Source: a virus
Lineage: Duplodnaviria > Heunggongvirae > Uroviricota > Caudoviricetes
IMG/VR virus record: IMGVR_UViG_3300020059_000001
Coordinates: 78,679-108,404 of that record
Strand: one strand, 5' to 3'
DNA length: 29,726 bases
The position numbers and the translations under genes were made by a program. Below, in pieces: positions 1 through 19,400 of the stretch. The stretch's first letter is position 1; every line of letters starts with the position of its first letter. Below the pieces are notes generated by a model. It had not been told where the DNA came from, did not search any database, and was given only the letters and a program-made list of their open reading frames with translations.

Positions 1-372
1 GCCCCGCGGCGTAACGGCGGCAGCCGTGTCGTAGAGGAGGCAGCCGAAGGTGCCGGCGACGGTGGTGTTGGCTGGTGACGCGGTGTCGTTCGCGTCGAAC
101 ACGACCCGCAGCGAGTTAGCGACGGAGATGGTTTGGCCCGCCAGGGCCACACCGCCGGCTGACCAGTTGGTGCCAGTAATTTCGTTACCGGCCCACGTCG
201 AGCCAGCGCCAGCGTAAGACTGGAGTGCATCTGTAGCCGCATCGGCATCTGGAACGACGGTGTTGTTGTACAACGCCACTTTGCAGGCGTCCACATCGAA
301 GTCCCATGCCTGGGTATTGCTGAACAACTCCGACAACGTACGCCGAAACATCTTACTAACGCTCCAGGACAT
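1..372 (-). CDS. Probable virion structural protein (5' part only; runs off the window)
   Basis: Manual translation gives MSWSVSKMFRRTLSELFSNTQAWDFDVDACKVALYNN...EITGTNWSAGGVAL..., open to position 1. Not in the ORF track. Lies downstream of the head-tail genes. Confidence 0.65.
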   Translation of the reverse strand, partial: MSWSVSKMFRRTLSELFSNTQAWDFDVDACKVALYNNTVVPDADAATDALQSYAGAGSTWAGNEITGTNWSAGGVALAGQTISVANSLRVVFDANDTASPANTTVAGTFGCLLYDTAAAVTPRG

Positions 373-387
373 TTACTCACCACCCTT

Positions 388-870
388 CTAGTTGGCTGTT
401 ACACAAATTGCGTAGGCCGTAACACCATCCGTGAAATCATTGTCATTCGTAACGACAACGTCCCACTCCCAAGTGGTGCCATTTGCGAACGGCCAACTAA
501 CCCACACTTTGGTATTTAGTCCAGCAGGTGGAGAACTCAGATGGTAACCGCCACCGGTCACAACCTTCCCGGCCGGACAAAACGCTGAGGCCTGACCATT
601 TTCGTGAGCCGGCACATTGACCGCCACTGTCACTACTTCATGTCCGGACACACCAGCCGGACCCTGTGGTCCAGTCTGGTTCCAGTTCAGTGCGGTCCAG
701 CCACTCGGACATGTGGCCGCCGAGTCGATTGCCCGTAGGGTGCCGTCGGTATTCTTTCGACAGGCGTGGATTACACCATCTGGGCCAGGAATCGACGCAT
801 AGGCAACGCCGGTAACGGCAAGGATGCCGATCGTAGCGGCGCCGATGATCGCCATCGTCTTTTTGCGCAT
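388..870 (-). CDS. Secreted Cys-rich protein with signal peptide and short Gly-X-Y (GPQGPAG) motif
   Basis: Start re-called at MRKKTMAIIGAATIGILAVTGVAYA, an ATGA overlap with the upstream stop. Contains IHAC..LRAID..C..LNWNQTGPQGPAG and CPAGKVVTGGGY..AYAIC. Confidence 0.7.
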   Translation of the reverse strand: MRKKTMAIIGAATIGILAVTGVAYASIPGPDGVIHACRKNTDGTLRAIDSAATCPSGWTALNWNQTGPQGPAGVSGHEVVTVAVNVPAHENGQASAFCPAGKVVTGGGYHLSSPPAGLNTKVWVSWPFANGTTWEWDVVVTNDNDFTDGVTAYAICVTAN

Positions 871-1187
871 CAGCCGGCTCCTGTTCCGATTCCTGCGGCG
901 GGTGCGAGCACTGCGCAGTCCTGCCCGTCGTCTCTGGTGGTGATGACCGACATCATGGGTCGGCCATCGTTGTTGGTTTGGACTTGCTCGTCGCCGACGT
1001 AGTCTTCGCGTTCTTTGGCTTCGACTTTGGCTTTGGTACCGGCCGGGACCATCGGTGCGGTCAGTCCCTTCAGGCCGCGGCAAGGGTGCATTCGGCTGTG
1101 GGGTTCGGCTTCATGGGTGACGTCTTCGAAGTCGCAGTTGGGGCATTCCCAGCGGCGTTCCGGGAAGGTCAGGATCGGCACTGCCAC
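870..1187 (-). CDS. Phage hypothetical protein with Zn-ribbon-like CPNC...HPC motif
   Basis: ORF track; coupled to its neighbour; WECPNC and HPC motifs. Confidence 0.7.
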   Translation of the reverse strand: MAVPILTFPERRWECPNCDFEDVTHEAEPHSRMHPCRGLKGLTAPMVPAGTKAKVEAKEREDYVGDEQVQTNNDGRPMMSVITTRDDGQDCAVLAPAAGIGTGAG

Positions 1188-1198
1188 GGTCGGCCTCC

Positions 1199-1771
1199 TT
1201 AGGCGTAGTAGCCGGAGCCGACGTAGCTGGCGGCGATCTTTTGGGCGTAGCTGGTGAGTTGGACACCGCCGATGTGGGCCGCGTACGACACTTTGTAGTC
1301 GTCGATTGCTTCGGCGATGACTGCGCCGGTGGGTTGGTGGTATGCCTGCGCCGCGGTTTCCAGCACTGATGCCTTGACGTCATCGGGTGGTGTGGCGTAG
1401 CCGTAGGTCAGGTCGACTTCGACGTTTTGGGGTGGGAAGCCGATCCAGTCCTGGAGGTTGAGCCAGTATCCGAATCCGTTGTTTCGGTAGAGTTTGGCGT
1501 ACCAGATCCGTGATGTGACGACGGTGTAGTCGGTGACTGTGACGTTGTTGATGCGTACCGCGTTGATGCTGATGATTGGTTTGAATGGTGGGATGAGTAC
1601 TCGGCTGCCGTTGCCGACTTCGGAATGCGTCACCGTTGTTGGTGTGAATGTGGTGTCGGCTTCGTTGTCGAATTCGGCGCTGGCCAGCTGTAGTAGCAGG
1701 GTGGCGGTTGATGTGTCGACGTCTTGTTGTAGGTAGGAGGCCAGTTCGGCGGCGGTTGCGTACTGAACCAT
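1199..1771 (-). CDS. Head-to-tail adaptor/connector-like protein
   Basis: N-terminal YATAAELASYL, C-terminal VEVDLTYGY...PDDVKASVLE...EAIDDYKVSY pattern, position downstream of the capsid gene, and a GGGAGG RBS. Confidence 0.75.
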   Translation of the reverse strand: MVQYATAAELASYLQQDVDTSTATLLLQLASAEFDNEADTTFTPTTVTHSEVGNGSRVLIPPFKPIISINAVRINNVTVTDYTVVTSRIWYAKLYRNNGFGYWLNLQDWIGFPPQNVEVDLTYGYATPPDDVKASVLETAAQAYHQPTGAVIAEAIDDYKVSYAAHIGGVQLTSYAQKIAASYVGSGYYA

Positions 1772-1787
1772 GTTGGTGCCCTCCCGG

Positions 1788-2010
1788 CCCGAGCTATAGT
1801 GGCGAGCAATTCGTCGGAAGGCGAAGGGCAGCGGTGCGGTAGGGCTGGGCGGGGCATGGCAGGGCTACGCGTGGCGCGGCAGCAGCGGTAAGGCGTGGCT
1901 GGGTTAGGCATGGCCGGGCATGGCTAGGCAGCAGAGGCATGGCGAGACGTGGCGAGGCTAGGCGAGGGCCGGCCTGGCGTGGCAGGCGAACCGGATCCTG
2001 GGGAGGACCG
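1788..2010 (+). repeat. GGY-NN pentamer array 1 (3 units) with leader; putative guide ncRNA
   Basis: TATAGT at 1795-1800; hairpin tcgtc-GGAA-ggcga at 1811-1824; GGCAGC followed by 9 pentamers; linkers at 1878 and 1927. Intergenic. Confidence 0.9.
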
Positions 2011-2012
2011 TC

Positions 2013-2873
2013 CTAGCTGTTGACCTTCAACGCCCGTTCGACGCCTTCCTCGATCGTGATCTTCGGTGTGTAGATTTCGGTCATCCGAGTAGGGTCACCG
2101 ACCCGGTAGTACACGCCAGTGGGCATGTCCGGCTCGTATTCCACTCGGACGTCAGGCCGGCCGGCGGCCAGCCGCATCAGGTCCCCGAACTCGACACCGT
2201 GACCGGTACACAAGTTGACCGGGCGACGTTCGTCAGCGTCGACAACTGCTAACGCGCCGGCCACAACATCGTCGATATGAATGAAGTCGCGGACCTGACC
2301 CGGCGGTCCCCACACGCTGAAATCGCCCCTACGGGCCCGTTCGATGATGCTAGGGAACGGATAATCCAGCGGCTGGTCTTCGGCGTAACCGGAAAACGGG
2401 CGTACTACGTGTACAGCTAAACCGGTTTCGGTGGCGGCGCGGGCGAGCTGCTCGCCGCATAGTTTGGCCCAGCCGTAGCGGGAATCGGGTTGGGCCACAT
2501 CGTCGAGATCGATGTCTTCTTCAGTAAGTCTGGTTTCGAACTCGCCGGTCTGTAACGCCGCCGGGTAGGCGGCGCTGGAGCTGAAGTACAACACCCGCAG
2601 CTGGGTTTGGATGGCCCATTCGAACATTGCCGCGTCGAGGTGGGCATTCCTGGTCAGTAACCGGAATTTGCTGTCGATCGAGGCCCGGCCACCGATGTGG
2701 TAGGCGAGGTGGATTACCAGGTCGTAGACGGGACACCCGCCGTGGAACAGGTCGTGGGCGTTGCGGTCGGCGACCAGGTCCCACGGGTCAACATCCCAGC
2801 CGCGGTCCACCAGCTCCTGGGCCATGTGACGACCCACGAAACCCGCAGCACCGGTTATTAGACATCGCCTCAT
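2013..2873 (-). CDS. NAD-dependent epimerase/dehydratase (extended SDR)
   Basis: TGAAGFVG Rossmann motif, SSSAAY, catalytic YGWAK (YxxxK), RDFIHIDD. Confidence 0.93.
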   Translation of the reverse strand: MRRCLITGAAGFVGRHMAQELVDRGWDVDPWDLVADRNAHDLFHGGCPVYDLVIHLAYHIGGRASIDSKFRLLTRNAHLDAAMFEWAIQTQLRVLYFSSSAAYPAALQTGEFETRLTEEDIDLDDVAQPDSRYGWAKLCGEQLARAATETGLAVHVVRPFSGYAEDQPLDYPFPSIIERARRGDFSVWGPPGQVRDFIHIDDVVAGALAVVDADERRPVNLCTGHGVEFGDLMRLAAGRPDVRVEYEPDMPTGVYYRVGDPTRMTEIYTPKITIEEGVERALKVNS

Positions 2874-3475
2874 ATGCGCATCCCCATGATGACTTGGAAC
2901 CGGCCGACCATTTCGTGGCGCAGGATTCGGTAGCTACCCAGGCCGATCAGGTCTCGGTAGCCTTGGACGTCCCAGGCCCAGGCGTGGCATTCGTCGTATC
3001 CCCAAGGGCCTTCGTCCCAGGGGGACGAGGCGACGATGAACCGGGATTTGGAACCGATCCATTTGACGGCGGCGGCTGGGTCGGTGAGATGTTCGAGAAC
3101 CTCGGTGACCGCGGTGACGATGCCGAACCGGATGTGGTCGGCATCGTCACCGAACACATCCAAGGCTTCGGCGTTGACGTCACGTTCCGACCAGCCCACC
3201 GCGTTGTTCGGGGTGAAGTCGTATCCCCAGGCGTCGTTCACGTAGCTGCGGATAAGTGACAGCAGGCCACCGTCGCCGCAGCCCAGGTCCGACACCGACG
3301 TGTAGCCGCGTTCTATCGTGGCGGCAGCCCGGATGAAGTCGGCGGCCCGTTGCAGCCGTTCCCGCTGGCCAGGTTCTTCGAGATGCCGGGCCCGTTCCCG
3401 GTCCTTGTGAAACTCGTAGGTACTGACCTTAGCTACGTCGCCGTCGAACAGTTTCCAGGCGGTCACCGGGCGCAC
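2870..3475 (-). CDS. Class I SAM-dependent methyltransferase
   Basis: Motif I VSDLGCGDGG; EVLEHL. Confidence 0.85.
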   Translation of the reverse strand: MRPVTAWKLFDGDVAKVSTYEFHKDRERARHLEEPGQRERLQRAADFIRAAATIERGYTSVSDLGCGDGGLLSLIRSYVNDAWGYDFTPNNAVGWSERDVNAEALDVFGDDADHIRFGIVTAVTEVLEHLTDPAAAVKWIGSKSRFIVASSPWDEGPWGYDECHAWAWDVQGYRDLIGLGSYRILRHEMVGRFQVIMGMRI

Positions 3476-4029
3476 CAGATTTGGTACGCGTAGGTGAATC
3501 CGGCTGGCCGCAGATCGAGTTCCGTAAAGATCAACGGTATGAAGCCGGCGGTAACCAACATCTGTTCAACGGCCTCGGAGTCGAATCCCCAAACGTGTTC
3601 TGGGTTGTTGTCGTCGTCTTCACCGTCCGGTGTGGACAGGATCAGATTAGCCGTCTTGCTCCGGATCGCTTTCAACACCGCGTCGGGGTCATCGACGTGT
3701 TCAATGGTTTCGCTACAGATGAAAAGGTTGATCGGGTCGGTCAGTTGGTGGATGGTTTCTTCGATCGGCCCGGTGTACTCGTAGCCTGGTGCGATGTCGC
3801 CGAGGATCGTCTTCACGCCGCAACTCGCGGCGAGGCGGCGGGCGATCGTCGCGTCCCCGCAGGACAGGTCGGCAACGGTGCTTCCTGGTTGGATCATGTG
3901 TTGGGCTAGGGCGGTGGTGACGTCGACCCGGACCCGGTGGTCGGCCCAGGCGCTGTGCTGGTGCGGTTTGGCGTAGAGCGCGGCTAGCTCTGTCTGGCTG
4001 GGTGTCGGCCGTAGCCGGCGGCGCATCAT
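3463..4029 (-). CDS. Class I SAM-dependent methyltransferase
   Basis: VADLSCGDA and CSETIEHVDDP motifs. Start re-called at 4029 (ATGA overlap with the upstream stop). Confidence 0.8.
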   Translation of the reverse strand: MMRRRLRPTPSQTELAALYAKPHQHSAWADHRVRVDVTTALAQHMIQPGSTVADLSCGDATIARRLAASCGVKTILGDIAPGYEYTGPIEETIHQLTDPINLFICSETIEHVDDPDAVLKAIRSKTANLILSTPDGEDDDNNPEHVWGFDSEAVEQMLVTAGFIPLIFTELDLRPAGFTYAYQIWCAR

Positions 4030-4730
4030 CGGTCTACTCGTTTGCGCAGCGCCTGTACCGCCCGTACATCCGTCCACATTCGTGTGTGCAGATAGGTTTG
4101 GTAGGCGCGGGCGTCGGCGCTGTACACATCGGCGTTGTTGACCCGACGGTAGCCTGGGTCCCAATCCGCTTTACCGGCAACTGGATGCACATGTTCGACG
4201 ATGACGTCGGGCAGGTAGGTAAGGCAGCCGGCGTGCTTACCGAGGTCCCGCCAAAAGTTGTCGACAAACAAGTGAGTCAGCCGCGGCGGTGACATGTAGC
4301 CCAACGCCCGAACGATATCGGTGGTCATCGCGACCTGCGTCGGTAGGTTCTCGCCCTGCAACAGGTCGTTACCGTAGACGATGCCGGTACCGAGCCCGTG
4401 CAGCTCGTCGAGGTACTGCCTGTCCCAGCCCTCAGTGCGGGGCCGGTGGTCATCGCCGAGGAACCCGATCGCGAACCCGCCCTGCTCGACAACGTAGGCA
4501 GCGGCCAGGTTCAACGCCGACACCATCGTGCCCCGTTCCTGCTCGATGATCGACGTAACCCTGTTGATGCCGACCATCGACTCGTAGTAGACGGACCGAC
4601 GCTCATCGTCAGCGTCCAGCGCCAACACGATCTGGGTATCGGCAGCACAGGTCGCGTTGAATGCTTCGGCCAGTTCAGCGACCGCAGCAGGCCGGCCACG
4701 GGACGGCACGATCACCACAAGATCAGTCAT
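4026..4730 (-). CDS. GT-A fold (family 2-like) glycosyltransferase
   Basis: Start re-called at MTDLVVIVPSRGRP; DxD-like LGDDH; HLFVDN; VEHVHP. Confidence 0.85.
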   Translation of the reverse strand: MTDLVVIVPSRGRPAAVAELAEAFNATCAADTQIVLALDADDERRSVYYESMVGINRVTSIIEQERGTMVSALNLAAAYVVEQGGFAIGFLGDDHRPRTEGWDRQYLDELHGLGTGIVYGNDLLQGENLPTQVAMTTDIVRALGYMSPPRLTHLFVDNFWRDLGKHAGCLTYLPDVIVEHVHPVAGKADWDPGYRRVNNADVYSADARAYQTYLHTRMWTDVRAVQALRKRVDR

Positions 4731-5592
4731 CGGCGTCTGTCTTTGATTCGGGTGGCACGTCGTAGGGCGGTGGATTGACGGCGCGTTCCCGCCAGTAGTC
4801 CTCCTCACCCAACCAGATTTCCTTGTGGTGGGTAGTTTGCACGCCGGTGTGGACGTACAGCGGGATGTCCAACGCTCCAGCGCGCATACAGAAGGAAAGG
4901 TCTTCGGATACGACCTGACCGGTCGTAGTGTTCGGCACCCGGTTGTACCAGATCGGCCCGAACTTCTCCTCGATCTGTTCGAACACCGACCGGTGGATGA
5001 GGATGCAAGCACTACCGGTACCGGCGCAACGGGTTATCTGGTTGATTGGATAGTCCCAACGGACCGAGAAACCCATCTGCTCGCCGGTCATTGTCCGCTG
5101 ATGTTCGCCGTGGACAATCGTCTCATCCGAGACGCCGATCTTGGCCCAGTCGAAGACCGTCGGAACTGCGGTACACCGCCAGCCGCCATGCTCATCGGCG
5201 GTCATCTCCCGCTGGCTAAAACAGAGCCCACCGACGATAGGACGTTCAACCGGGTCGGCAGCATCCATCAACCGGTCAAGGGTATCGGCAGCAAAACCCA
5301 TATCGGTATCCAACCAAAACAGCCAGTCGGCCTGATCCTCTTTCAAGAACGTAACAACAGACTTGTTACGTGCATCGATCAACCCGGCCGTACCATACTT
5401 GAGCGCAATGTAACCGCCGCGCATAACCCTAGCTTCATGGGTTATGTCCCAACCGATCATCTCAACCATCGAATGGTGCCACGAATACGACACATTCGTA
5501 TCGTGAACGTACGCTAAGACAACTGCACCATCACGTTCGTTGTCAGTGGCAGCTACCACCGGCACCGGCTCTGTTACTTCTTCCGTAAGCAA
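4723..5592 (-). CDS. GT-A fold (family 2-like) glycosyltransferase
   Basis: RN..V..FL, WLDTDMGF (DxD), GTGSACILIHR, SEDLSFC. TTG start after a GGAGG RBS is inferred. Confidence 0.82.
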   Translation of the reverse strand: MLTEEVTEPVPVVAATDNERDGAVVLAYVHDTNVSYSWHHSMVEMIGWDITHEARVMRGGYIALKYGTAGLIDARNKSVVTFLKEDQADWLFWLDTDMGFAADTLDRLMDAADPVERPIVGGLCFSQREMTADEHGGWRCTAVPTVFDWAKIGVSDETIVHGEHQRTMTGEQMGFSVRWDYPINQITRCAGTGSACILIHRSVFEQIEEKFGPIWYNRVPNTTTGQVVSEDLSFCMRAGALDIPLYVHTGVQTTHHKEIWLGEEDYWRERAVNPPPYDVPPESKTDADD

Positions 5593-5631
5593 AATTCTAT
5601 TCCTCCACAAGGGTGGCATTAGGATGGCTGG

Positions 5632-5672
5632 TCCTGCGGTCGGCCGGCCATCCCAAGCAGCCGACCGCAGGA
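5632..5672. terminator. Inverted repeat, probable terminator or RNA hairpin
   Basis: 13-bp arms tcctgcggtcggc / gccgaccgcagga, intergenic. Confidence 0.55.
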
Positions 5673-5682
5673 GACATAGAGT

Positions 5683-5964
5683 TTAGAAATCGCCGTTACG
5701 TGAGCGTCGGGTAGTACGCCGCTCACCCGGATTCGCGGTAGCCTGCTCAACCGGAACCTCATCATCAGGAATGTGTTCGCCAGGCGCATACGCCATCTCC
5801 CGTGGCGGCATGTTCGGCGAAAACGTCAACCCGAAACGGGGATCCGTAGAAAACAAGTCAGGATGATCACGGACCACCGGATCGTCAGCCGGCCAATGCT
5901 GGCCCTTATGAATAGTGAGACCATTACTGACCTGCGCGGTAGTCGTCGCATACACAATGTCCAC
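5683..5964 (-). CDS. Small conserved head-module protein of actinophages
   Basis: ADDPVVRDHPDLF and PVEQATANPGERR motifs; GGAG RBS; position downstream of the capsid gene. Confidence 0.75.
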   Translation of the reverse strand: MDIVYATTTAQVSNGLTIHKGQHWPADDPVVRDHPDLFSTDPRFGLTFSPNMPPREMAYAPGEHIPDDEVPVEQATANPGERRTTRRSRNGDF

Positions 5965-5995
5965 AAATAACTCCTGGAATGGCTAAGGTGAAGAC

Positions 5996-6045
5996 ACACG
6001 TAACCCCCAGGGCGGGGTTGGAGCTGCCCCCTGGGGGTTACGTGT
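5996..6045. terminator. Long inverted repeat, probable terminator
   Basis: 17-bp perfect arms acacgtaacccccaggg / ccctgggggttacgtgt. Confidence 0.65.
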
Positions 6046-6058
6046 CTAACAAAGGGAC

Positions 6059-6484
6059 TTACTTTGCGGTGTAGCCATACGTAGCAAGCAGCGCATCGAT
6101 CTCCGCGACCTGCGCACGAGCCACATCCCGCTGAAGCTTCCGGACCTCCTCAGCCTCAGGATCCAGCTCCAAATCGGCACTCGAAACAATGCCCTGCCGC
6201 TCAGCAAGCAACCTATGCACCGTCGGATCGCTGGACTCAGCCGCCGGACGTAGCTCCCCAGACCAGGTACCGACCGGGGTACGTTCCGCGCGGCGCTGAA
6301 CCTCGACCAACTTCGCCTCAGCCTCAGCACGCTGCTTACCGGCCTTCACCTCAGCGTCAGACCGCTCACCGGCCTTCTTCGCCACATCCCCGCCAGGACC
6401 CCTCTTATCGTCAACCCTATCGGCCGACACATCACGAGTAGTAACCGGAGGCCTATCAGTCTCCGGACCAGTCTTCAACGTCAT
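6059..6484 (-). CDS. Phage hypothetical protein (head module)
   Basis: ORF track; AAGGAG RBS. Confidence 0.7.
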
Positions 6485-7199
6485 CTGATTTCTCCTTGTT
6501 CAAAACTTCCCGCACAAGATCCGGATAGTGGTGAACCACTAACATCACGGCAAGGTCCGGATAATGTTCAACGAACCAAGCCCCGAGATCCTCCGGTCGG
6601 CGCCCACATGGCTGAGGCTTCGTCCACAACTCAAGGTTCTCAGGACGGTTATCCAGCCCCATCCCGTTTTTGTGGTGAACATTCTCGAAGGGCTCCAATG
6701 GGCGACCAAGAACCTGTTCCATCACCTGACGATGTTCGGAGACACTCCGTCGCTTACCGGCTTCGTACCAGGCAAAGCGACGATAGCCATTATCGATTGA
6801 AACCGTGCCTTCGCCATTAGCTCGCTTCACTGTTCCGACCGCACCCGGACTACCAAACTGCTGCATCCGGTTGTAATGCAATGCACACATGCCCTTGGCG
6901 AAATACCTCCGAGCACAACCACCGACTGAGCAAGGCGCTACACCAAACCGTCCACCACGTACGACACCGGCCGGTCCGACGTCACCAGTACGGCGTAGTC
7001 GCTGGTAATGCATCGAACAATGAAGCTTGTCCAACGCCGACCGGGAACAACCAACAACCGCACAAGGGCGACGGACGTTACGAACCCGCTGCGCCGCCGC
7101 ATGGGTCCGATCCTTGCAAGACCGGGAACAATATGCCTGATTACTACGTCGGGGCTCAAACTCGGTCGAACAACCACGACAGGCCTTAGACTCAACCAT
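6456..7199 (-). CDS. Free-standing HNH homing endonuclease with N-terminal Cys/His zinc-binding repeats
   Basis: EHRQVME..LGRPL...VHHKNG...[10 protein letters not shown]; two CxxxGC...CxxHY repeats. Start re-called at [10 protein letters not shown]. Its 3' end overlaps the start of the next gene. Confidence 0.88.
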
Positions 7200-7359
7200 T
7201 GCTGAGGGCCACCTCTTGGGTAGGTGTTCTTCGGCCGGCGCCGGAGAGTACACGCTCTCCGGCGCCAACCTGTGATTACCCCAGCTTAACGTACTTTCCC
7301 CAGCTCAGGCGTCAATCGGCGACGTAACCAACTCCAGGACCGAGACTAATCGGACATAC

Positions 7360-8844
7360 CTAGGCATTTACGAGCAAACGGAACCCTAGGTCGTTGATCG
7401 AATTCCCACCGATCCTGGCGTACGCGAACCATCCGCGCTGGCCAGTAGGCATGCCGACACCAGTACCCGCTGTCGCCTGGTTGAATAGCTGTGGCACCAG
7501 CTCGACGCTCATTCCGCCACGGCGGGCTATAAGGTAATTCGAGAAATCGCCAACGATGGCAAGTCCGTCAGTACCGGTGGTTACCGCAGTAACGTCGGGC
7601 ATGTACGGCGACTCGTAGACGCCCTTCGCGAACAGCGAGTCTGTCCACTCTTCGGGCAGGTTGATCGTGTAGGCGTGGTAGACGTTCGAGGTGCCGAGCT
7701 GCCGGATCGCGTTGTTCACGCCGACGGACATGAGCCAGGACGCCTTGCGGCGGAACTTCTGCGGCAGCGCCTTCCATACCTTGTATGGGTCGGCGGAGCC
7801 GATGGTCGGTGCGGCGGTAACCACGACGCGAACGTTGGTGTTTGCCGATAGGGCGGTGAGGATGCCGCGGGGTTCGTTGGTGCCGGTGCCGCGGGTGAAC
7901 TTGTCGACGAGTAGTTCGTCGTAGCCCTGTGTTAGCAGGGTTGCCATCTCGTCGGCGAATGCTGGGTAGTCCTGCTGGACTTCGATGGTGAACGGGATGA
8001 AACCGCGGGCCATGTTGACGGTGACCGACGGCTGCGCCAGTACCGGTGACGCGTCGCCGACGGTGGAACCTTCCGTCTGGAACGTCCAGGTGACACCGGC
8101 GGAGGTGACACCCTTCCAGGCGTTGGTGTTGACCGTGACCTGCTTGGCGAGCTGGAGGAACGGATTACCCGACTCCTGCGCGGTCAAGATGATCGACGGG
8201 TCGATGAAGACCGGGATTCCGAAGCCACCGGCGGTGGTGGTGCCTTCGGCCATGATCCGGTATTCCTCCCATGCCTGCACTGCCCGTTGTTCTTCGGGCG
8301 TCAGGATGGGGTGGTTGCGGGTGGTCAGCTTCAGCCACGCCTCGCGGTAGTCGTCGTTTTCGGTGACGAGGATCCGGCGGGCGATGTCGGTGTCACGGCG
8401 GATCTGCCGTTCGACGTGGGTCTTCTGCTCGTCGGACAGGTGCATGGTGGTGGTGCGGTCACCGATGCGGCGTAGTGCCCGGTCCCGGGCTTCGTTGACC
8501 GACAGCCGGCGGACGTCGCCGTAGGGGTCGTCGGGCTGGGCACCGAGACGGCTGTACTCGATGGCCGACGGCCGCTTGCGGAGTACTTCGTTGACGGCGC
8601 GGTGTTCTTCGTACATTTCCAGGGCCCGCTCGTGGACTTCGAGCAGGATCTTCATGGCCTTCTTCTCCGGGTCGGAGAGCTGGCGCAGTTCGGCGGTCAC
8701 CGGGTCCTGGTGCAGATCCTGGATCTGCGCTTTGGTGACATCAATGATTTCGGAAATTTCGTCGGGGGTGCGGCCCCGGAGGTCTTCGAGAGTGAAGGTG
8801 CGCTTCTCGAAACGCTCCTCGGTGCCGGTCCGGTCCTCAGGCAT
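7360..8844 (-). CDS. Major capsid protein (HK97 fold) with N-terminal scaffold-like domain
   Basis: TTTAGGFGIPVFID, DKFTRGTGTNEPRGIL, AIVGDFSNYLI..R and WFAYARIGG; helical N-terminus; follows the protease gene. Confidence 0.93.
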   Translation of the reverse strand: MPEDRTGTEERFEKRTFTLEDLRGRTPDEISEIIDVTKAQIQDLHQDPVTAELRQLSDPEKKAMKILLEVHERALEMYEEHRAVNEVLRKRPSAIEYSRLGAQPDDPYGDVRRLSVNEARDRALRRIGDRTTTMHLSDEQKTHVERQIRRDTDIARRILVTENDDYREAWLKLTTRNHPILTPEEQRAVQAWEEYRIMAEGTTTAGGFGIPVFIDPSIILTAQESGNPFLQLAKQVTVNTNAWKGVTSAGVTWTFQTEGSTVGDASPVLAQPSVTVNMARGFIPFTIEVQQDYPAFADEMATLLTQGYDELLVDKFTRGTGTNEPRGILTALSANTNVRVVVTAAPTIGSADPYKVWKALPQKFRRKASWLMSVGVNNAIRQLGTSNVYHAYTINLPEEWTDSLFAKGVYESPYMPDVTAVTTGTDGLAIVGDFSNYLIARRGGMSVELVPQLFNQATAGTGVGMPTGQRGWFAYARIGGNSINDLGFRLLVNA

Positions 8845-10378
8845 TCTGTGTTTTCACTTCCTCATTGGCTCCGTCGCGGTAGTACGCGTCGCGGTGGCGC
8901 AGCACCCGTTCTCGTTGTTGGAGTCGGGTGATCTGCTCATAAAATTCGTCGTCGGTCGAGCCGCGGTCACTGCTGGACTCGGTCTCGGAATCACCGCCGG
9001 CCGCGCCATCGGCATCGGACTGCCCGGTGAGGTCTGTTCTGAAGCTGGCTTCGGCTTCTTCTTCGAAGTTGTCGAGGCCAAGAATGGGTATTCCGCGGTT
9101 TTGTAGCTCGTCGGCAAGGTCGCGGACGAACTCGCGGCAGAGTGCGTTGCGTTCTTCGGGGTCGAGTTGGGCCATCAATGCCCGGACCCCGACGGTGGTG
9201 TCGTCGTAGGCGGGGAAAACGACCGGGCCGCATTCGCGGGTGTCGGTGTGCAGGATTTCCCGGAAGTCAGCGTCGCCTACGCCGTCGGATCGTTCTCGGG
9301 CGTTAGTCCATTTGTCGCCGCCTTGGGGGACAGCGAAACGGAAACTCATGCCACTGATTGATTTGCCTTCAATGGCCTGCCGGACTGGTTCCACGACCGG
9401 GTTGTCGAAGAGTCGGGCCCGGACGTAGAGACCCCTGTTGTCTTCGTGGATATCTTCGATTGATCCGATTGGCACGCTACCGACGCGTGGATCCCGGCCG
9501 TGATCGTATTGGAGTACCGGTGTCCGTTCGGTGAGTGACCGGCTGAAGGCACCGGGGCGGATGACTTCATCGAAGTCGCCGTTCCAGTCAGAGATTCGGC
9601 TTACCGAGTCGAATACTGCGGCATAGCCTTCGAGGGTCCGACCGTCACCGGCCACTTCGGATTCGAAGTTGAAGGACCGCACCTGGAAGGCGTTAGGGTT
9701 TCGGGACTTCGAATCGGAGCCGACTTTGATGCCGAATTTTTTGGCCGCAGCCATGACCTTGGCTTTCGCTTTCGGCCCGAACGGGCTTTGACTCAGTCGG
9801 GCAAGGGCGTTCTGGGTATGCGCTTTGTCGTGGATCAGGAAGTGCCGTTTCGACCGGGGCGTTGTCTTACCTGAGGCGTCTTTTGTGCCGCCGGGTTCGA
9901 TGAAGGCGAAGGCCGAATCCGGAAGGTCGTTGATGGGTCCAGTCGACATGGCTTTACGGGCAGTCAGGGTTGCTGATCGTGCTTCGCTGTTGCCGGTGTC
10001 CGAGTTGGACTGGCTGCCGCCCTGGCCGTAGGCGTTGCCGCCGCCCTGGCCGTGTCCCGACGTACCTGTTGTTGCCCCTGCGGTAATGCTGGTACCGATC
10101 GAGGTCCCGATCCGGCGGCCGAGGTTGGTGATAGAGGTCATGTCATGGCCGCGGGTTGCGAGGACGTTGGCCGCAAGGGCGGCGACTTCCGGATGTATTC
10201 CTTTGGCTTGTACTGCCTTGGCGGCGCCGAGTGACCCGACGATGTGCCCGGCTACGTCGTGGAGGAACTGGACGTCGTGATCGTTGTGTGCCGAAGCGTG
10301 GATGTCGGTAGGTGAGTCGGCCCGGGTTCCGTTATCGCTGGTGTTTGAGTCTGCAACGGCCCAGTCAGGAATGGCCAT
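8837..10378 (-). CDS. HK97-family prohead protease with long N-terminal extension
   Basis: LEGYAAVFD, PGAF, YDHG (His), PIG, GLYV, SGMSF (Ser), VVFPAY. Confidence 0.9.
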   Translation of the reverse strand: MAIPDWAVADSNTSDNGTRADSPTDIHASAHNDHDVQFLHDVAGHIVGSLGAAKAVQAKGIHPEVAALAANVLATRGHDMTSITNLGRRIGTSIGTSITAGATTGTSGHGQGGGNAYGQGGSQSNSDTGNSEARSATLTARKAMSTGPINDLPDSAFAFIEPGGTKDASGKTTPRSKRHFLIHDKAHTQNALARLSQSPFGPKAKAKVMAAAKKFGIKVGSDSKSRNPNAFQVRSFNFESEVAGDGRTLEGYAAVFDSVSRISDWNGDFDEVIRPGAFSRSLTERTPVLQYDHGRDPRVGSVPIGSIEDIHEDNRGLYVRARLFDNPVVEPVRQAIEGKSISGMSFRFAVPQGGDKWTNARERSDGVGDADFREILHTDTRECGPVVFPAYDDTTVGVRALMAQLDPEERNALCREFVRDLADELQNRGIPILGLDNFEEEAEASFRTDLTGQSDADGAAGGDSETESSSDRGSTDDEFYEQITRLQQRERVLRHRDAYYRDGANEEVKTQNA

Positions 10379-10461
10379 TGATAGTCCTTTCTGGGCAGCG
10401 TATTTACGGTGGGGCTATGGTTGGGTAATTTCGCTGTAGAAACCGGTGGGTGTCCCCGGTT

Positions 10462-13092
10462 TTACTTCTTCAGCGGTGGCCTCGGCTTAGGCGTTGCCTT
10501 ATTTGATGTGCTGCCACCAGCCGGATACGGCTTAGCCGTAGGACTGTCGTTAGCCGCACCAGGCGTCGGATTGTCCGACGACGGTGCCGGTGCATGCCCG
10601 GTCCCAGGTGCATTACCTCCGGGCAATGCGGGTTTGCCGCCACCGCCACCAACGGGTAGCACCGGCTGGCCACCGATTTCGTAAAGCTGAACGCTGACAA
10701 GCCCGGAGTGCTCCAACAAGCTGACGTCTTGGCCGATGACCGCGGCAACCGACGACTTCGGTGTGAATCCGTCTTTGACGTAGCCGGTGATGGTACTCAT
10801 TTTGATTTGTTCGATTTCGGCTGCGTCACGGGCGTCTTCACGCAGGATCGGCATGTCGGCGACGTCGAACCACAGTTCCGCATCGCGTGGCACGTTGATG
10901 ACGGGGGCTAGCGCCGCGCATAGGTCTTGCAGTGTCGGATAGACCCAGGAATCAGCGAAGATACGGCGGGCCATGCCGAAGTTACCGGCATTCAGTGAGC
11001 TACCGGCGAGACCTTCAGAAATACCCAACAATGGGGCCGGAACTCGTGACAAGAAGGCAATTCTGGTTTCCCCAGCTCCCTGGGTATTTTTGAAGTCGAG
11101 CTGCTTCAGGTCGCTACCGACGACTTTCGCGTCGGCGCCAGCAGTAAGATACAGGCTGCGATACGCATTCTTTACGCCAGCGTGTCGGTTCTCCATGGCA
11201 TCAACCATGGCGTCGAACTGTTCCCGCGATGCGGCGGTCAGTCCGTTGACGACCATGTTCGGGGTATTGTGGGTCAGAATAAAATCGTCGGTGACGTACA
11301 GGTGGTTGTCGGAGTCGACACCGATGCACTGTGCCGGCTTCCGGCCGACGTGTTCGACGCCCTGGATGTAGCGCCACCGGCCACCATGGAAGGTGGGTGA
11401 ATACATCGCTGCCTTGCGGGCTAGCCGGCAGGGGGTAATCCATTCCGGTAGTCGACTGATCAGTACCCGCCACTGGGCACGTGCCCGGTCTGTAGCTAGC
11501 CGGCTTGGCCGGGCCGACGCGATACCACCGAGGCCACCGACTAGTTCGGCAACCTGCTCGGCCAACATTTGACTGGTGCTGTCAAACCGGACCGTATTCG
11601 GCTGCCGCCGATCTACGGATCCGTCAGTGTCGATCAACCCCTGGAGCAGGGCAACTCGCTGTGTCACCGATGCACGTAGATACGGCTCCGGAATCGACTT
11701 TTCGTAGCCCAACTTGTCGAACAGGCCCAGTTCGCGGATCTGTTGGGTCAGCGGATTTGGGCGCGAGGCGCCAGGGCCCCGGAAGTAGAACTCGGCCCAC
11801 CCGCCACGGTTACGGCGGACGATCGTTACTCCGGCCGGCAGGAGCGTGGCGAGAACCTGCTGCTGTTCGTCAGCGTCACCAGTATGCGCGGCCATTGAAA
11901 CCCCGCCGCTACCCTTGCCGTTGTTGCGGAAACTACCGTCGCCGAGCAGCGATCCGAGCAGGTAGGGATCCAGTGGCAAATCGCCGGGGTCATCGAACTC
12001 GACCGGATCGACCAGCGGCACCGACCACTTGTAAGGGCCGCTGTCGTACTGGACGCCGTTGGCCACGAGCTGGGCCAGGGTACGGGTCCGGGTAACGCCG
12101 AGTTTGCGGTCATAGGCACTAGCGACGGTCCACAGGTGGTCGGCGGTGCACTCAGTTGATGTACCGCTGGAGAATGTCACCCGGTAGATGTCCTGGACAC
12201 CCTGCGGGTACACCGCGACGACCATCTTGGGCTTACCGTCGGAACCGATAACCCGATCACCAACGACAACCTCACCCATCGTCGTCCAACCGGCCGGCGT
12301 CAGAATCCCCGCGTCCAAGGGCATCGGTGCGCCGTTTTCGAAGAAGCGAAGCTTGTGTTCGGTGGCGGCTTTGTCGCCTTGGATTTCGCGGAGTGCTGGG
12401 GTGAGCCAGGACATGCCGATGCCGGCGGCTTCCGGGTCTGGTAGTGGGCTCCAGTGGGCCATTTCGCCGGGCAGGATGGTGTGCATCGGGTGTTGTGATG
12501 TGCGGAGGCCACCGTTTTGGTAGACGTAGCCGAGTAGTTCACCGTCGAGGGCGTGGGCGGCGTCGTCGGGTTCCTGGTGGGATCCGTAGACGAGGGCAAC
12601 CCAGTCGGGGCGTAGTACGCGTAGCCGGTCTGGTTGGCGGTAGACGTAGGCGTTGCCGGCGATGCCGGCGTGCCATTCCATTCGGGCGATCAGTTCACCG
12701 GTGGTGGCGTTTGTCCACGGCTTCTCTAGTGGGGCTAGCCGGGGGGTGCCGAACATGTGGCGGGGTTTCGACGATGACGGCAAGTTTCGGAATGTGAATC
12801 GGGCTTGGCTCAAAACTAGTGCGCGGACTAGTTGGGCGGCGAAGGCTGGTGGGCAGCTCCGTAGCGCGGCTGAGTAGCCGGGGAGGGTGCCGGCTATTTC
12901 GGATGATTTTGTGCCGTCGAGGGTTTGGATTAGCCCGTACGTACCAGGTCCGGTCACATATTGCGATCCGTTGTAGCCGAACGTTGTGGGGAGTAGGTAG
13001 TTGGAAATCCAATCGTCGGCGGAGAATCGCTCCTCTGTCTCAGTGCCCCTACGGCGAGCTAACTCCTTAGTGACGGCATCCAGTAGCCCCAA
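10462..13092 (-). CDS. Portal protein (HK97-like), intein-interrupted
   Basis: GNAYVY, G(M)SWL, FFENGA|TPNMVV extein junction, IAFLSRVPAPLLG; low-complexity C-terminal tail. Confidence 0.92.
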   Translation of the reverse strand: MGLLDAVTKELARRRGTETEERFSADDWISNYLLPTTFGYNGSQYVTGPGTYGLIQTLDGTKSSEIAGTLPGYSAALRSCPPAFAAQLVRALVLSQARFTFRNLPSSSKPRHMFGTPRLAPLEKPWTNATTGELIARMEWHAGIAGNAYVYRQPDRLRVLRPDWVALVYGSHQEPDDAAHALDGELLGYVYQNGGLRTSQHPMHTILPGEMAHWSPLPDPEAAGIGMSWLTPALREIQGDKAATEHKLRFFENGAPMPLDAGILTPAGWTTMGEVVVGDRVIGSDGKPKMVVAVYPQGVQDIYRVTFSSGTSTECTADHLWTVASAYDRKLGVTRTRTLAQLVANGVQYDSGPYKWSVPLVDPVEFDDPGDLPLDPYLLGSLLGDGSFRNNGKGSGGVSMAAHTGDADEQQQVLATLLPAGVTIVRRNRGGWAEFYFRGPGASRPNPLTQQIRELGLFDKLGYEKSIPEPYLRASVTQRVALLQGLIDTDGSVDRRQPNTVRFDSTSQMLAEQVAELVGGLGGIASARPSRLATDRARAQWRVLISRLPEWITPCRLARKAAMYSPTFHGGRWRYIQGVEHVGRKPAQCIGVDSDNHLYVTDDFILTHNTPNMVVNGLTAASREQFDAMVDAMENRHAGVKNAYRSLYLTAGADAKVVGSDLKQLDFKNTQGAGETRIAFLSRVPAPLLGISEGLAGSSLNAGNFGMARRIFADSWVYPTLQDLCAALAPVINVPRDAELWFDVADMPILREDARDAAEIEQIKMSTITGYVKDGFTPKSSVAAVIGQDVSLLEHSGLVSVQLYEIGGQPVLPVGGGGGKPALPGGNAPGTGHAPAPSSDNPTPGAANDSPTAKPYPAGGSTSNKATPKPRPPLKK
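11266..12327 (-). mobile_element. Class-3 intein with LAGLIDADG endonuclease in the portal (354 aa)
   Basis: Starts PMPLDAGILTP and ends ILTHN/T; WCT motif (DHLW, AQCI, THN); motifs LGSLLGDGS and LQGLIDTDG. Confidence 0.9.
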
Positions 13093-13105: not shown

Positions 13106-13301
13106 CCCGAGCTATCGTTTGTGGCAATCCGCCGGAAGGCGGAGGGCAGTGGCGGGGCGTGACAAGGCTCGGCGCGGCACGCGAAGGCGCGGCAGCAGCG
13201 GCGTGGCTGGGCTTGCGAGGGCGAGGCACGGCAAGGCCAGGCAGCAGTGGCGGGGCAAGGTTAGGCCTGGCACGGCAAGGCCAGGCGAGGCAAGGCCGGC
13301 T
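13106..13301 (+). repeat. GGY-NN pentamer array 2 (3 units) with leader; putative guide ncRNA
   Basis: TATCGT at 13113-13118; hairpin ccgcc-GGAA-ggcgg at 13129-13142; linkers at 13191 and 13240; ends GGCCGGCT. Confidence 0.9.
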
Positions 13302-13314
13302 AGGAGTGAGTAAG

Positions 13315-13635
13315 TCAGGCAGCGGTTCGGGTTTCCCGGGCCGCTGTTTTGTCGTAGCCGGCCCGCCAGCCGACAAGGACGGCGGCTACACACCAGGCGT
13401 TGCCAGCCCGGCAGGCGGTGACTGTCTTCGCGGCGAGGTAGCCGCCGGCGATCAGGGCGGCTGCGATTGTGGAGATCACGGCCCGGAGCACCTTGGCCGC
13501 GGTGAAGCCGACGGCGACCAGGACGGCGGCGAGGACGACGAGGGCACTGCGGCGGAAGTTGACCTGTTTGGCTTCGGTGGCGATCCGGTCGAGGGGCAGG
13601 GTGCGGTCGAAGATGTCGAAGCCGGCGTCTGTCAA
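13315..13635 (-). CDS. Small membrane protein between terminase and portal
   Basis: Hydrophobic segments; WCVAAVLVGWRAG; TTG start. Confidence 0.7.
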   Translation of the reverse strand: MTDAGFDIFDRTLPLDRIATEAKQVNFRRSALVVLAAVLVAVGFTAAKVLRAVISTIAAALIAGGYLAAKTVTACRAGNAWCVAAVLVGWRAGYDKTAARETRTAA

Positions 13636-13877
13636 GGAACCTGCCCTTTCTCGTATGGGGACACAGTGGACATAACAGGGCGTCGGGCTGAGAATTACGC
13701 TGTGAGCGTAATGAGATATGTGCGATCCACTGGCATATGTGGATCCGGCATGTTTATGTTCTTCTTTAGAGCGGCAGGCCCCAAGGTTCCTTAGTCAGCT
13801 TCAGAAAGCATCCTGGAGTGCCCATGCCAGCTGTTGCCCTGAGGATCTGGGCCTCACCGTTCTCGTTCCTCAGTAGA

Positions 13878-14194
13878 GGTTCGGCAGCAGCGGCTAGGCG
13901 AGGCTAGACGGGGCGTGGCTAGGCGGGGCGAGGCAAGGCAGGGCAGCAAAGGCGAGGCACGGCAGGGCAGGGCAGGGTATGGCAGGGCACGGCTCGGCAG
14001 CAGCGGCGGGGCAAGGCAGGGCGTGGTCTGGCGTGGCGCGGCAGCACCGGCGAGGCAAGGCAAGGCGAGGCCGGGCGCGGCGTGGCAGCAGAGGCGCGGC
14101 ACGGCAGGGCGAGGCTTGCGACGGCACGGCATGGCAGCAGAGGCAGGGCGAGGTAAGCCGAGGCGAGGCATGTCCAGGCAAGGCACGGCCGGCT
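13878..14194 (+). repeat. GGY-NN pentamer array 3 (6 units), directly upstream of the RAMP gene; putative guide ncRNA
   Basis: Linkers at 13883, 13942, 13996, 14040, 14084 and 14133, followed by 10, 9, 7, 7, 8 and 9 pentamers; ends GGCCGGCT. Confidence 0.93.
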
Positions 14195-14208
14195 CCGGAA
14201 ACGAAAGA

Positions 14209-14273: not shown

Positions 14274-14888
14274 ATGGCTGAAAAGTTAGTTACTTTGGAA
14301 CGGCTTCAGCGCGTTGAGCTGGAGTTTGTGATTGTTGGTACGTCCCCGTTGATCGTCAATCGCTGGTCTGAGAAGGCGAAGGCGATGATGTTGGAAAAGC
14401 AGACGACGTCGGCGCGGGCAAAGAAAGACCCCAAGGACCCGGTCGCTAACTTCGAGGCGTCGAAGTACAAGTTCGACGACGGGCGGGACGGCTTCCCGGC
14501 TGTTTCGTTCAAGGCCTCGATCGTGCATGCCGCCCGGTTGTTCGAGGGCATTACGCAGGTACAGATCAAGCAGACCGTGGTGGTGCGCGGTGAGGGTGAA
14601 CACCAGTTGGTGCCGCTCGAATATGGTGCGGTAACGATGCGCGAGGACACGCCGCGGAACGCGTCCGGGGTGGCGGATCTGCGGTACCGGGCCCAGTATT
14701 GGCCGTGGTCTGCGACGTTGTATGTGCGGACCATCGCTGGGCAGCTCGACGAGGGGTCGCTGTTGGCTCTGGTCGACGCGGCGGGTATCGGCGGGGTTGG
14801 TGAGTGGCGTCCGACGTCGCCGAAGTCGGCGACCGGGACGTACGGCACGTTCCAGATCGATGATGCGTCTGCGGTGGAGCTGCGGTGA
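14274..14888 (+). CDS. Solo RAMP/Cas7-like protein (Vipr-like RNA-binding effector candidate)
   Basis: First strand FVIVGTSPLIV, FPAVSFKAS (cf. the RAMP PGSSLKG motif) and C-terminal Gly-rich loop GIGGVGEWRP...GTYGTF. GAGAGG RBS. Flanked by pentamer arrays. Confidence 0.8.
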   Translation: MAEKLVTLERLQRVELEFVIVGTSPLIVNRWSEKAKAMMLEKQTTSARAKKDPKDPVANFEASKYKFDDGRDGFPAVSFKASIVHAARLFEGITQVQIKQTVVVRGEGEHQLVPLEYGAVTMREDTPRNASGVADLRYRAQYWPWSATLYVRTIAGQLDEGSLLALVDAAGIGGVGEWRPTSPKSATGTYGTFQIDDASAVELR

Positions 14889-15580
14889 CGGTTGAGAAGG
14901 TCAACATCGCGGAGCTGGTCGAGGATATGGATTTCTACCCGCGACACAGTGTCGACGGCGCCCATGTGTTGGATCTGATGCGGGCTATCGCCGCCAATGA
15001 GACGCTTCCACCGCCGGTGGCTGACCGGAAGTCGATGCGGATCGTGGATGGGTGGCATCGGATCCGGGCCTACGCCAAGTTGCATGGCCCGTCGGTACTC
15101 ATCGACGTTGATCTGCGGAGCTACCGCAGCGACACGGAGATACTCAAAGACGCGATCCGGCTGAACGCGAGTCACGGCCGGAAACTCGACCAGCAGGACC
15201 GGACCCGTAGCGTGTTGCTGTTGCAGCGACGCAACGTTGACGTAAAGACGATTGCGGTGGTCTTACACACCACGCAGCAGCGGGTCGAGCAGCTGAAGTT
15301 GCGGTTCGCGTTGGTGAAGAACAACGGCAGCAGCGAGCAGCTACCGGTCAAACCGAACCTGTATCCGAAGCCGGGGGAGGAACCGCGGACATTGACGCCG
15401 GAGCAGTACGCGGTAGCGCAGGCGTCGTCTGGTCATCGGACTACACAGATCCTGACGCAGTTGGCCAACGAGTTGGAGGCCGAGTTGTGGAATGTCGACG
15501 ACGAGCTGATCCGTGAACGGGCCTGGCGGTTGGCTGACCTGATCGCGCAGCGGATCCCGCAGCCCGAGCCGGCGGCGTAG
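14885..15580 (+). CDS. ParB/Srx N-terminal-domain protein
   Basis: LPPPVAD...IVDGWHRIRAY signature, then AIRLNASHG and an HTH-like segment; GTGA overlap with the RAMP gene. Confidence 0.85.
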   Translation: MTVEKVNIAELVEDMDFYPRHSVDGAHVLDLMRAIAANETLPPPVADRKSMRIVDGWHRIRAYAKLHGPSVLIDVDLRSYRSDTEILKDAIRLNASHGRKLDQQDRTRSVLLLQRRNVDVKTIAVVLHTTQQRVEQLKLRFALVKNNGSSEQLPVKPNLYPKPGEEPRTLTPEQYAVAQASSGHRTTQILTQLANELEAELWNVDDELIRERAWRLADLIAQRIPQPEPAA

Positions 15581-15601
15581 TTCTGGTTCTGGGGAGGATC
15601 C

Positions 15602-15870
15602 GGTTCGGCAGCAGCGGTTGGGCACGGCAAGGCGAGGCTGGGCGCGGCACGGCGTGGCTCGGCAGCAGGGGCGAGGCGTGGCATGGCGCGGTAAGGCGTG
15701 GGATGGCAGCAGTGGCTGGGTCTGGCATGGCCTGGGTAGGCAAGGCAAGGCAAGGCAGCAGCGGCACGGCATGGCGGGGCAAGGCAGGGCGTGGCTCGGC
15801 GAGGTACGGCAGCAGCGGAGGGCATGGCTGGGCGAGGCATGGGCCGGCCCGGCGCGGCAAGGCGCGGCCA
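15602..15870 (+). repeat. GGY-NN pentamer array 4 (5 units), downstream of the ParB-like gene; putative guide ncRNA
   Basis: Linkers at 15607, 15661, 15705, 15754 and 15808, followed by 9, 7, 8, 9 and ~11 pentamers. Confidence 0.93.
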
Positions 15871-15875
15871 ACCGG

Positions 15876-15911
15876 GGCGGTGATGAACGGATGGTTCCGT
15901 TCATCACCGCC
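15876..15911. terminator. Perfect hairpin at the convergence of array 4 and terL; probable bidirectional terminator
   Basis: 16-bp arms ggcggtgatgaacgga / tccgttcatcaccgcc with a 4-nt loop; overlaps the terL stop codon. Confidence 0.75.
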
Positions 15912-19150: not shown

Positions 19151-19400
19151 GTCTATCCGATAGAAGGGGGTCTTTGGCCTCTGGGCAGCGGCATGGCACG
19201 GCACGGGTCGCGAAGGCACGGCAGGGCAGCAGCGGAGAGGCGCGGGCTGGCAAAGCGAGCGATGGCGAGGCGAGGCGAGGCGAGGGACGGCGGCATCGGC
19301 GTGGCTAGGTTAGGCATGGCTGGGCACGGTAGGCATGGCAGCAGCGGCGAGGCTGGGGTTGGGGTTGGGGTTGGCTGGGCCAGGCAGGGCGCGGCCGGCT
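19151..19400 (+). repeat. GGY-NN pentamer array 5 (4 units, more degenerate); putative guide ncRNA
   Basis: Hairpin at 19167-19181, then GGCAGC; linkers at 19225, 19289 (ggcggcatc) and 19337; ends GGCCGGCT followed by a T-run. Confidence 0.87.

Follow-up and report, generated by a model that had tools for sequence, protein, structure and literature searches.

A putative remote vrRNA array with a hairpin-bearing leader in a phage that encodes Vipr

What is a tract of guide-like repeats doing on the plus strand of a phage genome, in the midst of a minus-strand module of late structural genes, and how could it be expressed and used so far from the protein expected to bind it? The tract in question (array 1) occupies positions 1788-2010 of the window, i.e. 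of the whole stretch of 29,726 bp analysed here, and comprises three units within ~220 bp. Its repeats are those of VIPR, a CRISPR-like DNA silencer made of the protein Vipr and of vrRNAs and described in preprints of 2026 (bioRxiv 10.64898/2026.04.26.720920; structures in bioRxiv 10.64898/2026.04.26.720927). In these systems, Vipr is a minimal RAMP protein of which one protomer covers each pentamer of a GGY-NN tract, and the NN bases of the vrRNA read double-stranded DNA, one base being skipped between dinucleotides. We argue that array 1 probably belongs, as a remote vrRNA array, to the VIPR system of the phage itself, on a path that would lead from a promoter of its own to the silencing of a competitor, and we weigh this reading against alternatives that seem less probable.

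Guide arrays and the vipr operon of the genome

The window covers bases 78679-108404 of a 108,404-bp IMG/VR virus record that has 62% G+C and an estimated completeness of 94% (Table 1). The closest annotated relatives of its large terminase are from actinobacteriophages (~37% identity), and megablast searches of window positions 1-12000 against phage records returned no match. No Rfam family was found in the entire window at the gathering threshold. Inteins with Hint and LAGLIDADG domains split two of the genes, those of the portal and of the large terminase.

Table 1. Features of the locus and of the guide arrays (window positions, unless marked as genome positions)
Feature	Position	Strand	Details
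Head-tail adaptor gene	1199-1771	minus	
Array 1, leader start	1788-1800	plus	CCCGAGC (1788-1794) and -10-like hexamer TATAGT (1795-1800)
Array 1, spacer	1801-1809	plus	ggcgagcaa
Array 1, leader hairpin	1810-1825	plus	stem UUCGUC 1810-1815, loop GGAA 1816-1819, stem GGCGAA 1820-1825
Array 1, leader end	1826-1834	plus	GGGCAGCGG
Array 1, first head and vrRNA unit 1	1826-1877	plus	head (G)GGCAGC; 9 GGY-NN pentamers: gc-ag-tg-gg-at-ag-ta-gt-gc
Array 1, linker and vrRNA unit 2	1878-1926	plus	linker GGCAGCAGC; 8 pentamers: aa-gt-tg-ta-at-cg-at-ta
Array 1, linker and vrRNA unit 3	1927-1985	plus	linker GGCAGCAGA; 9 or 10 pentamers: at-ga-gt-ga-ta-ga-cc-ct-gt-(ag)
Array 1, small 3' hairpin	1992-2010	plus	CGGAUCCUGGGGAGGACCG; 7 bp, weak, without U run
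Nucleotide-sugar epimerase gene	2013-2873	minus	stop codon 2013-2015
Major capsid protein gene	7360-8844	minus	
Prohead protease gene	8837-10378	minus	
Portal gene, with intein	10462-13092	minus	
Array 2	13106-13345	plus	paralogous leader, 3 vrRNA units, 15-bp stem with UUUU (terminator-like)
Array 2, leader start	13106-13118		CCCGAGC 13106-13112, TATCGT 13113-13118, then 9 nt ending CAA
Array 2, leader hairpin	13128-13143		stem UCCGCC 13128-13133, loop GGAA 13134-13137, stem GGCGGA 13138-13143
Array 2, leader end	13144-13152		GGGCAGTGG
Array 3	13880-14195		one flank of the vipr and ParB-like gene pair
vipr	14274-14888	plus	204-aa minimal RAMP; predicted binder of the array guides
ParB-like accessory gene	14885-15580	plus	overlaps vipr
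Array 4	15605-15870		other flank of the vipr and ParB-like gene pair
Large terminase gene, with intein	15904-19128	minus	
Array B	genome 17870-18095		type I leader at genome 17819-17870
Ninth guide element	genome 7680-7784 (outside window)	minus	single vrRNA, ~9 pentamers, type I leader

Nine tracts of one and the same grammar are spread over ~90 kb of the genome, which has a single vipr gene. Across the genome, a unit is built from a head followed by 7-10 pentamers, each of GGY plus two variable bases; the head is GGCAG(C/T) at the first unit of an array and a 9-nt GGCAGCAGN at internal units, and the latter brings in four extra bases that break the pentamer register. For comparison, the vrRNA caller of the VIPR authors works with at least four pentamer units, and vrRNAs of the SUSP1 clade have 9-16. 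In array 1, GGY is kept in 24 of 27 triplets (89%), much as in the operon-linked arrays, and the length of the units agrees with that in arrays 3 and 4. The NN strings are all distinct among the 24 well-parsed guides of the genome. Those that the first-pass annotation had read in array 1 were recovered exactly, with the addition that unit 3 may include a tenth dinucleotide, AG. Its identification of the tract as a guide array also stands, given the vrRNA grammar and a Vipr-type RAMP gene in the same genome, and the ~12 kb that it placed between the two come to 12.3 kb from the array end at 2010 to the gene start at 14274, a stretch in which lie the structural genes from the epimerase through the portal. 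We dropped a protein-coding reading of the tract: a grammar with 9-nt heads is no codon pattern, and all frames are open for the sole reason that GGCNN seldom yields stop codons.

Several of the other loci have peculiarities of their own. The ninth guide element, found with a covariance model of the leader, converges with a gene on the plus strand, the product of which has a helix-turn-helix-like C-terminus. Array B is embedded among tRNA genes, at least 14 of which are clustered on the plus strand (genome 17095-19945); it lies between a tRNA gene at genome 17254-17330 and one for tRNA-Gln at 18148-18222, and because of this position it may also be co-transcribed with the tRNAs and cut out alongside them. 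Unit 3 of array 5 (window 19354-19374) contains (TGGGGT) x 3.5, a telomere-like repeat of G runs whose 6-nt period violates the 5-nt guide grammar. Finally, TGGGGAGGA is common to the 3' flank of array 1 (window 1989-2008, GAACCGGATCC-TGGGGAGGA) and to the 5' flank of array 4 (window 15581-15604, TGGGGAGGA-TCCGGTTC), and an inverted copy of GGATCCGGTTC is also common to these two flanks.

The RAMP gene between arrays 3 and 4 has nine relatives in IMG/VR (41-77% identity at the protein level) and 30 more in bacterial genome contigs. Its G-loop, GGVG(E/D)WRP, is invariant among the nine IMG/VR relatives apart from one E-to-D change. The protein sequence had no match in the PDB; the AlphaFold2 model (mean pLDDT 77) had Csm3/Cas7 chains as its top PDB structure matches (E 2e-5) and, at rank 2 among AlphaFold DB clusters, X1U2U4 (E 2e-10, TM 0.64/0.73), the reference Vipr of bioRxiv 10.64898/2026.10.21.760802. 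Given the invariant G-loop and the structure matches to Csm3/Cas7 and X1U2U4, this gene is vipr, with a predicted Vipr/Cas7-type fold. The WR pair of the loop recalls, by motif and without alignment, the residues W178 and R179 for which contacts have been reported in the Vipr of SUSP1. Two operator-like inverted repeats lie in a region of lower G+C upstream of array 3 and vipr, one at window 13694-13712 (ATTACGCT-gtg-AGCGTAAT) and the other at 13724-13745 (GATCCAC-N8-GTGGATC); they might serve to control the VIPR operon.

The leader and its hairpin

Arrays 1 and 2 had been proposed to share a leader, and we found every one of its elements in place. The two leaders are identical at 37 of 47 positions (79%), and the likeness ends right at the start of the first guide. 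That of array 1 begins next to the ribosome-binding site of the adaptor gene, which is divergent from it. Array B has a third copy in front of it, with TAGGGT as its hexamer and the hairpin UCCGUC-GAGA-GACGGA, and a covariance model built from these three copies led to a fourth at genome 7728-7784 on the minus strand (score 27 bits, E 6e-4), which consists of TACGGT, tgttgtCAAT, the stem UGCGCC/GGUGCA and AGGGCAGCGG and has a GGY-NN tract of its own behind it. The genome contains the string CCGAGYTANNGT at array leaders and nowhere else, three times in all, for 0.4 occurrences expected. Fixed among the four copies are TA..GT, CAAT, AGGGCAG and the purine-rich nature of the loop, which is of GNRA type in three of them; the spacer from the -10 hexamer to CAAT varies, as do the stem positions, which are compensated. 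We call this form, CAAT-hairpin-AGGGCAG, the type I leader. Arrays A and C have a type II leader (a -10 box, ..GGA and an 8-bp stem GCCG(G/C)ATC), and the leader of array 5 is of a third form.

A number of observations suggest that the hairpin matters as RNA. First, it is stable: the GGAA loop had been noted on a 5-bp stem, and the loop is as described, on a stem of 6 bp once the flanking U-A pair is counted. With its one G.U pair and GNRA loop, the hairpin reaches -11.7 kcal/mol (z -3.7), a value equalled by none of 200 shuffles. Second, the stems differ among copies and keep their pairing, as had been claimed from two arrays: all 24 stem cells pair across the four paralogous copies, and two pairs are altered on both sides. 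Pair 2 is C-G, U-A or G-C, pair 5 is C-G, U-A or U.G, and pair 4 is G-C or G.U. The covariation score of the four copies was attained by 16 of 500 shuffles, and slid registers pair at 42-75%; with three copies, 104 of 500 shuffles reached the score, a control without power. The copies are paralogs of one genome, and the model that aligned the fourth presupposes the stem, so that the covariation in these sequences is real yet statistically light. Third, the array 1 hairpin has -6.7 kcal/mol in sense versus -1.6 kcal/mol in antisense, and all seven leader hairpins of the genome are more stable in the array sense, by 0.9-6.5 kcal/mol, owing to their G.U pairs and GNRA or UUCG loops. This asymmetry points to RNA read in the direction of the arrays and, with the covariation, supports the earlier proposal that RNA structure is under selection: the hairpin behaves like an RNA element of the array-sense strand.

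What such a hairpin could do may be seen by comparison with the type II vrRNAs of the SUSP1 clade, in which an invariable structured 3' tail (a pseudoknot) follows the repeats. Unlike these characterised vrRNAs, the units of our phage are joined by GGCAGCAGN and have no such tail, and since only the weak 7-bp hairpin comes after its last unit, array 1 is not of type II architecture, other types among the seven published being variable in this respect. One could imagine that the leader is a portable module able to seed new arrays at gene junctions, and that its 5' hairpin replaces the type II 3' pseudoknot tail as the structured cap, either to set the register or to nucleate the Vipr filament, which would make a distinct, 5'-anchored VIPR architecture; we see this as possible, if unlikely.

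It is rather improbable that the element acts mainly at the level of DNA or in cis, damping or timing the late operon through its G-rich, 5-bp-periodic DNA or through convergent transcription ahead of the adaptor, portal and terminase genes, or offering loading sites to the ParB-like protein. Such roles would agree with the coupling of the ParB-like gene to vipr and with arrays 1, 2 and 5, which start a few tens of nt from the starts of minus-strand structural genes, in the opposite direction; they agree less well with array B in its tRNA cluster and with the solo element at 7.7 kb beside a convergent gene, as neither lies at a late-gene start. Moreover, the predicted transcript of array 1 heads away from the ribosome-binding site of the adaptor, the identical grammar flanks vipr, which is the published form of the guides, and the G.U pairs, GNRA or UUCG loops and strand asymmetry of the leaders favour RNA over DNA.

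Transcription, insertion and targets

If array 1 is a remote vrRNA array, where would its RNA come from? The array is opposite in direction to both of its neighbours and to every upstream gene in the window, so an array-sense RNA needs a local start. It is not alone in this: A, C, 2 and 5, which are also remote, have all their flanking genes on the opposite strand as well. The -10 element postulated in the first-pass annotation has a candidate: TANNNT, the form of actinobacterial -10 boxes, is found 8-10 nt 5' of the hairpin in six of the seven leaders (TATAGT, TATCGT, TAGGGT, TACGGT, TATAAT and TACAGT). A consensus scan, on the other hand, detected a two-hexamer promoter neither at array 1 nor at array 2, and no -35 partner at array 1. 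From the TANNNT boxes, RNA is predicted to start 0-5 nt before the stem, and for array 1 we infer a start at ~1805-1809. At the other end, the consensus scan found no canonical terminator or terminator-like site at array 1. Its 3' hairpin stops 2 nt short of the epimerase stop codon, and the folding of this region is not significant (z-score +0.7). Arrays 2, 4 and 5 end in strong stems and array 1 only in this weak one.

The history of the junction can be read from relatives. The gap between the epimerase and adaptor genes is 241 nt here versus ~13 nt in a syntenic relative (L070), whose epimerase homolog is 48% identical, and seven other relatives of the adaptor have no array at that site either. 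Judging by this comparison, the array 1 cassette is an insertion between genes that are adjacent in L070. Because the array opposes all its neighbours and L070 is without the extra sequence, a promoter of its own and action in trans make up the most economical reading of array 1.

This reading can be spelled out as a chain of steps. TATAGT would serve as a -10-type promoter of the array's own, and given the start at ~1805-1809 the RNA would begin with the GNRA-capped hairpin. Stem-loops at the 5' end protect RNA from 5'-end-dependent decay, and the one at array 1 would most likely guard against this or exonucleolytic decay, as well as demarcate the first guide. The 4-nt break of register in the GGCAGCAGN heads may then separate successive guides, either by processing or as a filament end. 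Vipr made from the distant operon would load in trans and coat the GGY-NN runs, one protomer per pentamer as in SUSP1, and the Vipr-guide complexes, following the NN-skip-NN rule, would bind a competitor's double-stranded DNA and in this way silence it. We infer the action in trans by analogy with the solo vrRNAs of the SUSP1 system, for which it was shown experimentally according to the text of bioRxiv 10.64898/2026.10.15.759431.

Natural VIPR targets follow the 1-nt skip rule, with the skipped base on codon wobble positions. Under any skip rule, self-targeting by guides in their own genome was not above chance, and exact NN-skip-NN scans of IMG/VR gave no match for unit 1 of array 1 or unit 1 of array 3. 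Unit 3 of array 1 gave one match (19 of 20 informative bases), a 29-nt site at positions 7140-7168 of L079 (IMGVR_UViG_3300047576_000008), a phage contig of 68% G+C unrelated to this phage. The site lies in a 753-aa ORF with tail-fibre-like matches, and all skipped bases fall on third (wobble) positions of codons. A reversed unit 3 pattern, run as a control, also gave one exact match (in a contig of 37% G+C, not wobble-aligned), so that the number of matches is at chance level, and it is the context alone that is suggestive. No other guides converge on the candidate contig.

The lack of a significant target, together with the three triplets off GGY and the want of a clear terminator and of a two-hexamer promoter, would also be expected if array 1 had been copied from the main arrays to a gene junction and had since begun to decay or become inert, being neither expressed nor used any more. 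We find this quite doubtful, since the guides of array 1 are unique and no copies of other units, GGY conservation is comparable to that of the operon-linked arrays, and four loci keep TA..GT and, by compensatory changes, the pairing of the leader. Least probable of all is that the remote arrays are counter-measures, with guides against rival VIPR loci or vrRNAs or decoys that occupy a rival Vipr: vrRNAs that target vrRNAs and vipr have been reported on VIPR-positive and VIPR-null phages, but in 770 kb of related loci no guide of array 1 reached an NN match of 85% with any vipr gene or array, and matches under the 1-nt skip rule were no commoner there than under other skip rules.

The array among VIPR and other systems

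The leader was expected to recur in related arrays. It is kept in four arrays of this genome and was not found outside it: the covariance model found no leader in 74 related loci (606 kb), a longer leader pattern had no match in metagenome contigs, and among arrays of the GGCAGCAG type in IMG/VR (6 stretches) and metagenomes (31 stretches) none has the leader of array 1. A strict leader pattern gave ten matches in IMG/VR, which we rejected as chance, being without an array behind and without stem pairing, and the sole covariance-model match in the related loci, a hairpin in a Rhizobium prophage, was non-significant and had no array behind it either. Most of the related arrays recovered follow immediately on the accessory gene's stop codon and need no leader. 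As far as these searches go, the leader is a feature of the phage's own arrays and not of the wider family. Remote guides as such have a counterpart in the 104-kb phage IMGVR_UViG_3300047089_000152, whose Vipr is 43% identical: its vipr locus is at 43-46 kb, far from single vrRNAs at 33.4, 79.5 and 86.6 kb, each behind a TATAAT-like or TATGAT-like box and without this hairpin. In that phage, the constant triplet alternates between GGC and GGA.

Our system has in common with VIPR the pentamers in tandem, of which GGY is fixed and NN hypervariable, a phage-encoded locus of two genes (vipr and an accessory gene of DNA-binding type) flanked by arrays, and a minimal RAMP protein with a G-loop. It departs from published VIPR in having nine loci over ~90 kb, the remote ones with a leader of -10 box and 5' hairpin. 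The text of bioRxiv 10.64898/2026.04.26.720920 and 10.64898/2026.10.15.759431 does not contain the word "leader" and uses "hairpin" for the 3' tail only; neither promoter-plus-hairpin leaders, nor tail-less units with 9-nt heads, nor antisense, moron-like remote arrays are mentioned in the VIPR preprint text. Like the solo or orphan vrRNAs of SUSP1-like vipr-null phages and satellites, array 1 is not adjacent to vipr and would need Vipr in trans. Unlike them, it shares its genome with a Vipr gene, so that the arrays would add to the guides of the phage itself and borrow no protein, and they are multi-unit arrays instead of single vrRNAs with pseudoknot tails.

Two other kinds of element invite comparison. 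In CRISPR arrays, as here, a conserved sequence (here a putative promoter) lies 5' of the first unit of several arrays whose guides are wholly different, although the leader of our phage is not AT-rich and carries a hairpin that is predicted to be transcribed. The proteins of the window that were scanned include none for adaptation, so a part in the acquisition of units cannot be assumed. Phage morons and the promoter-plus-stem-loop cassettes (PeSLs) of T4-type phages, reportedly the subjects of Juhala et al. 2000 and Arbiol et al. 2010, are likewise small cassettes at junctions of conserved genes, with a promoter and stem-loop module repeated at several sites of a genome; array 1 differs from them in that its payload is guide RNA and no protein gene, and in having no clear terminator.

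Array 1 is thus another example of a kind already known (VIPR, 2026), with a leader that is absent from the VIPR preprint text, and the known principle of VIPR is unchanged by it. What it adds concerns 1) expression, because the same two preprints say little in their text about the transcription, the boundaries and the stability of vrRNAs beyond the SUSP1 clade, and this genome is a compact natural case, with one vipr, nine guide loci, four of them with a common leader, and 9-nt heads in place of folded tails; 2) architecture, as the 5'-anchored reading, if true, would mean a form of VIPR array with its own way of spreading; and 3) the guide repertoire, since a leader that is both promoter and stabiliser would be a minimal cassette from which multiplexed vrRNAs could be expressed in high-GC hosts, and its confirmation would mean that a phage can enlarge its set of guides by moron-like insertions.
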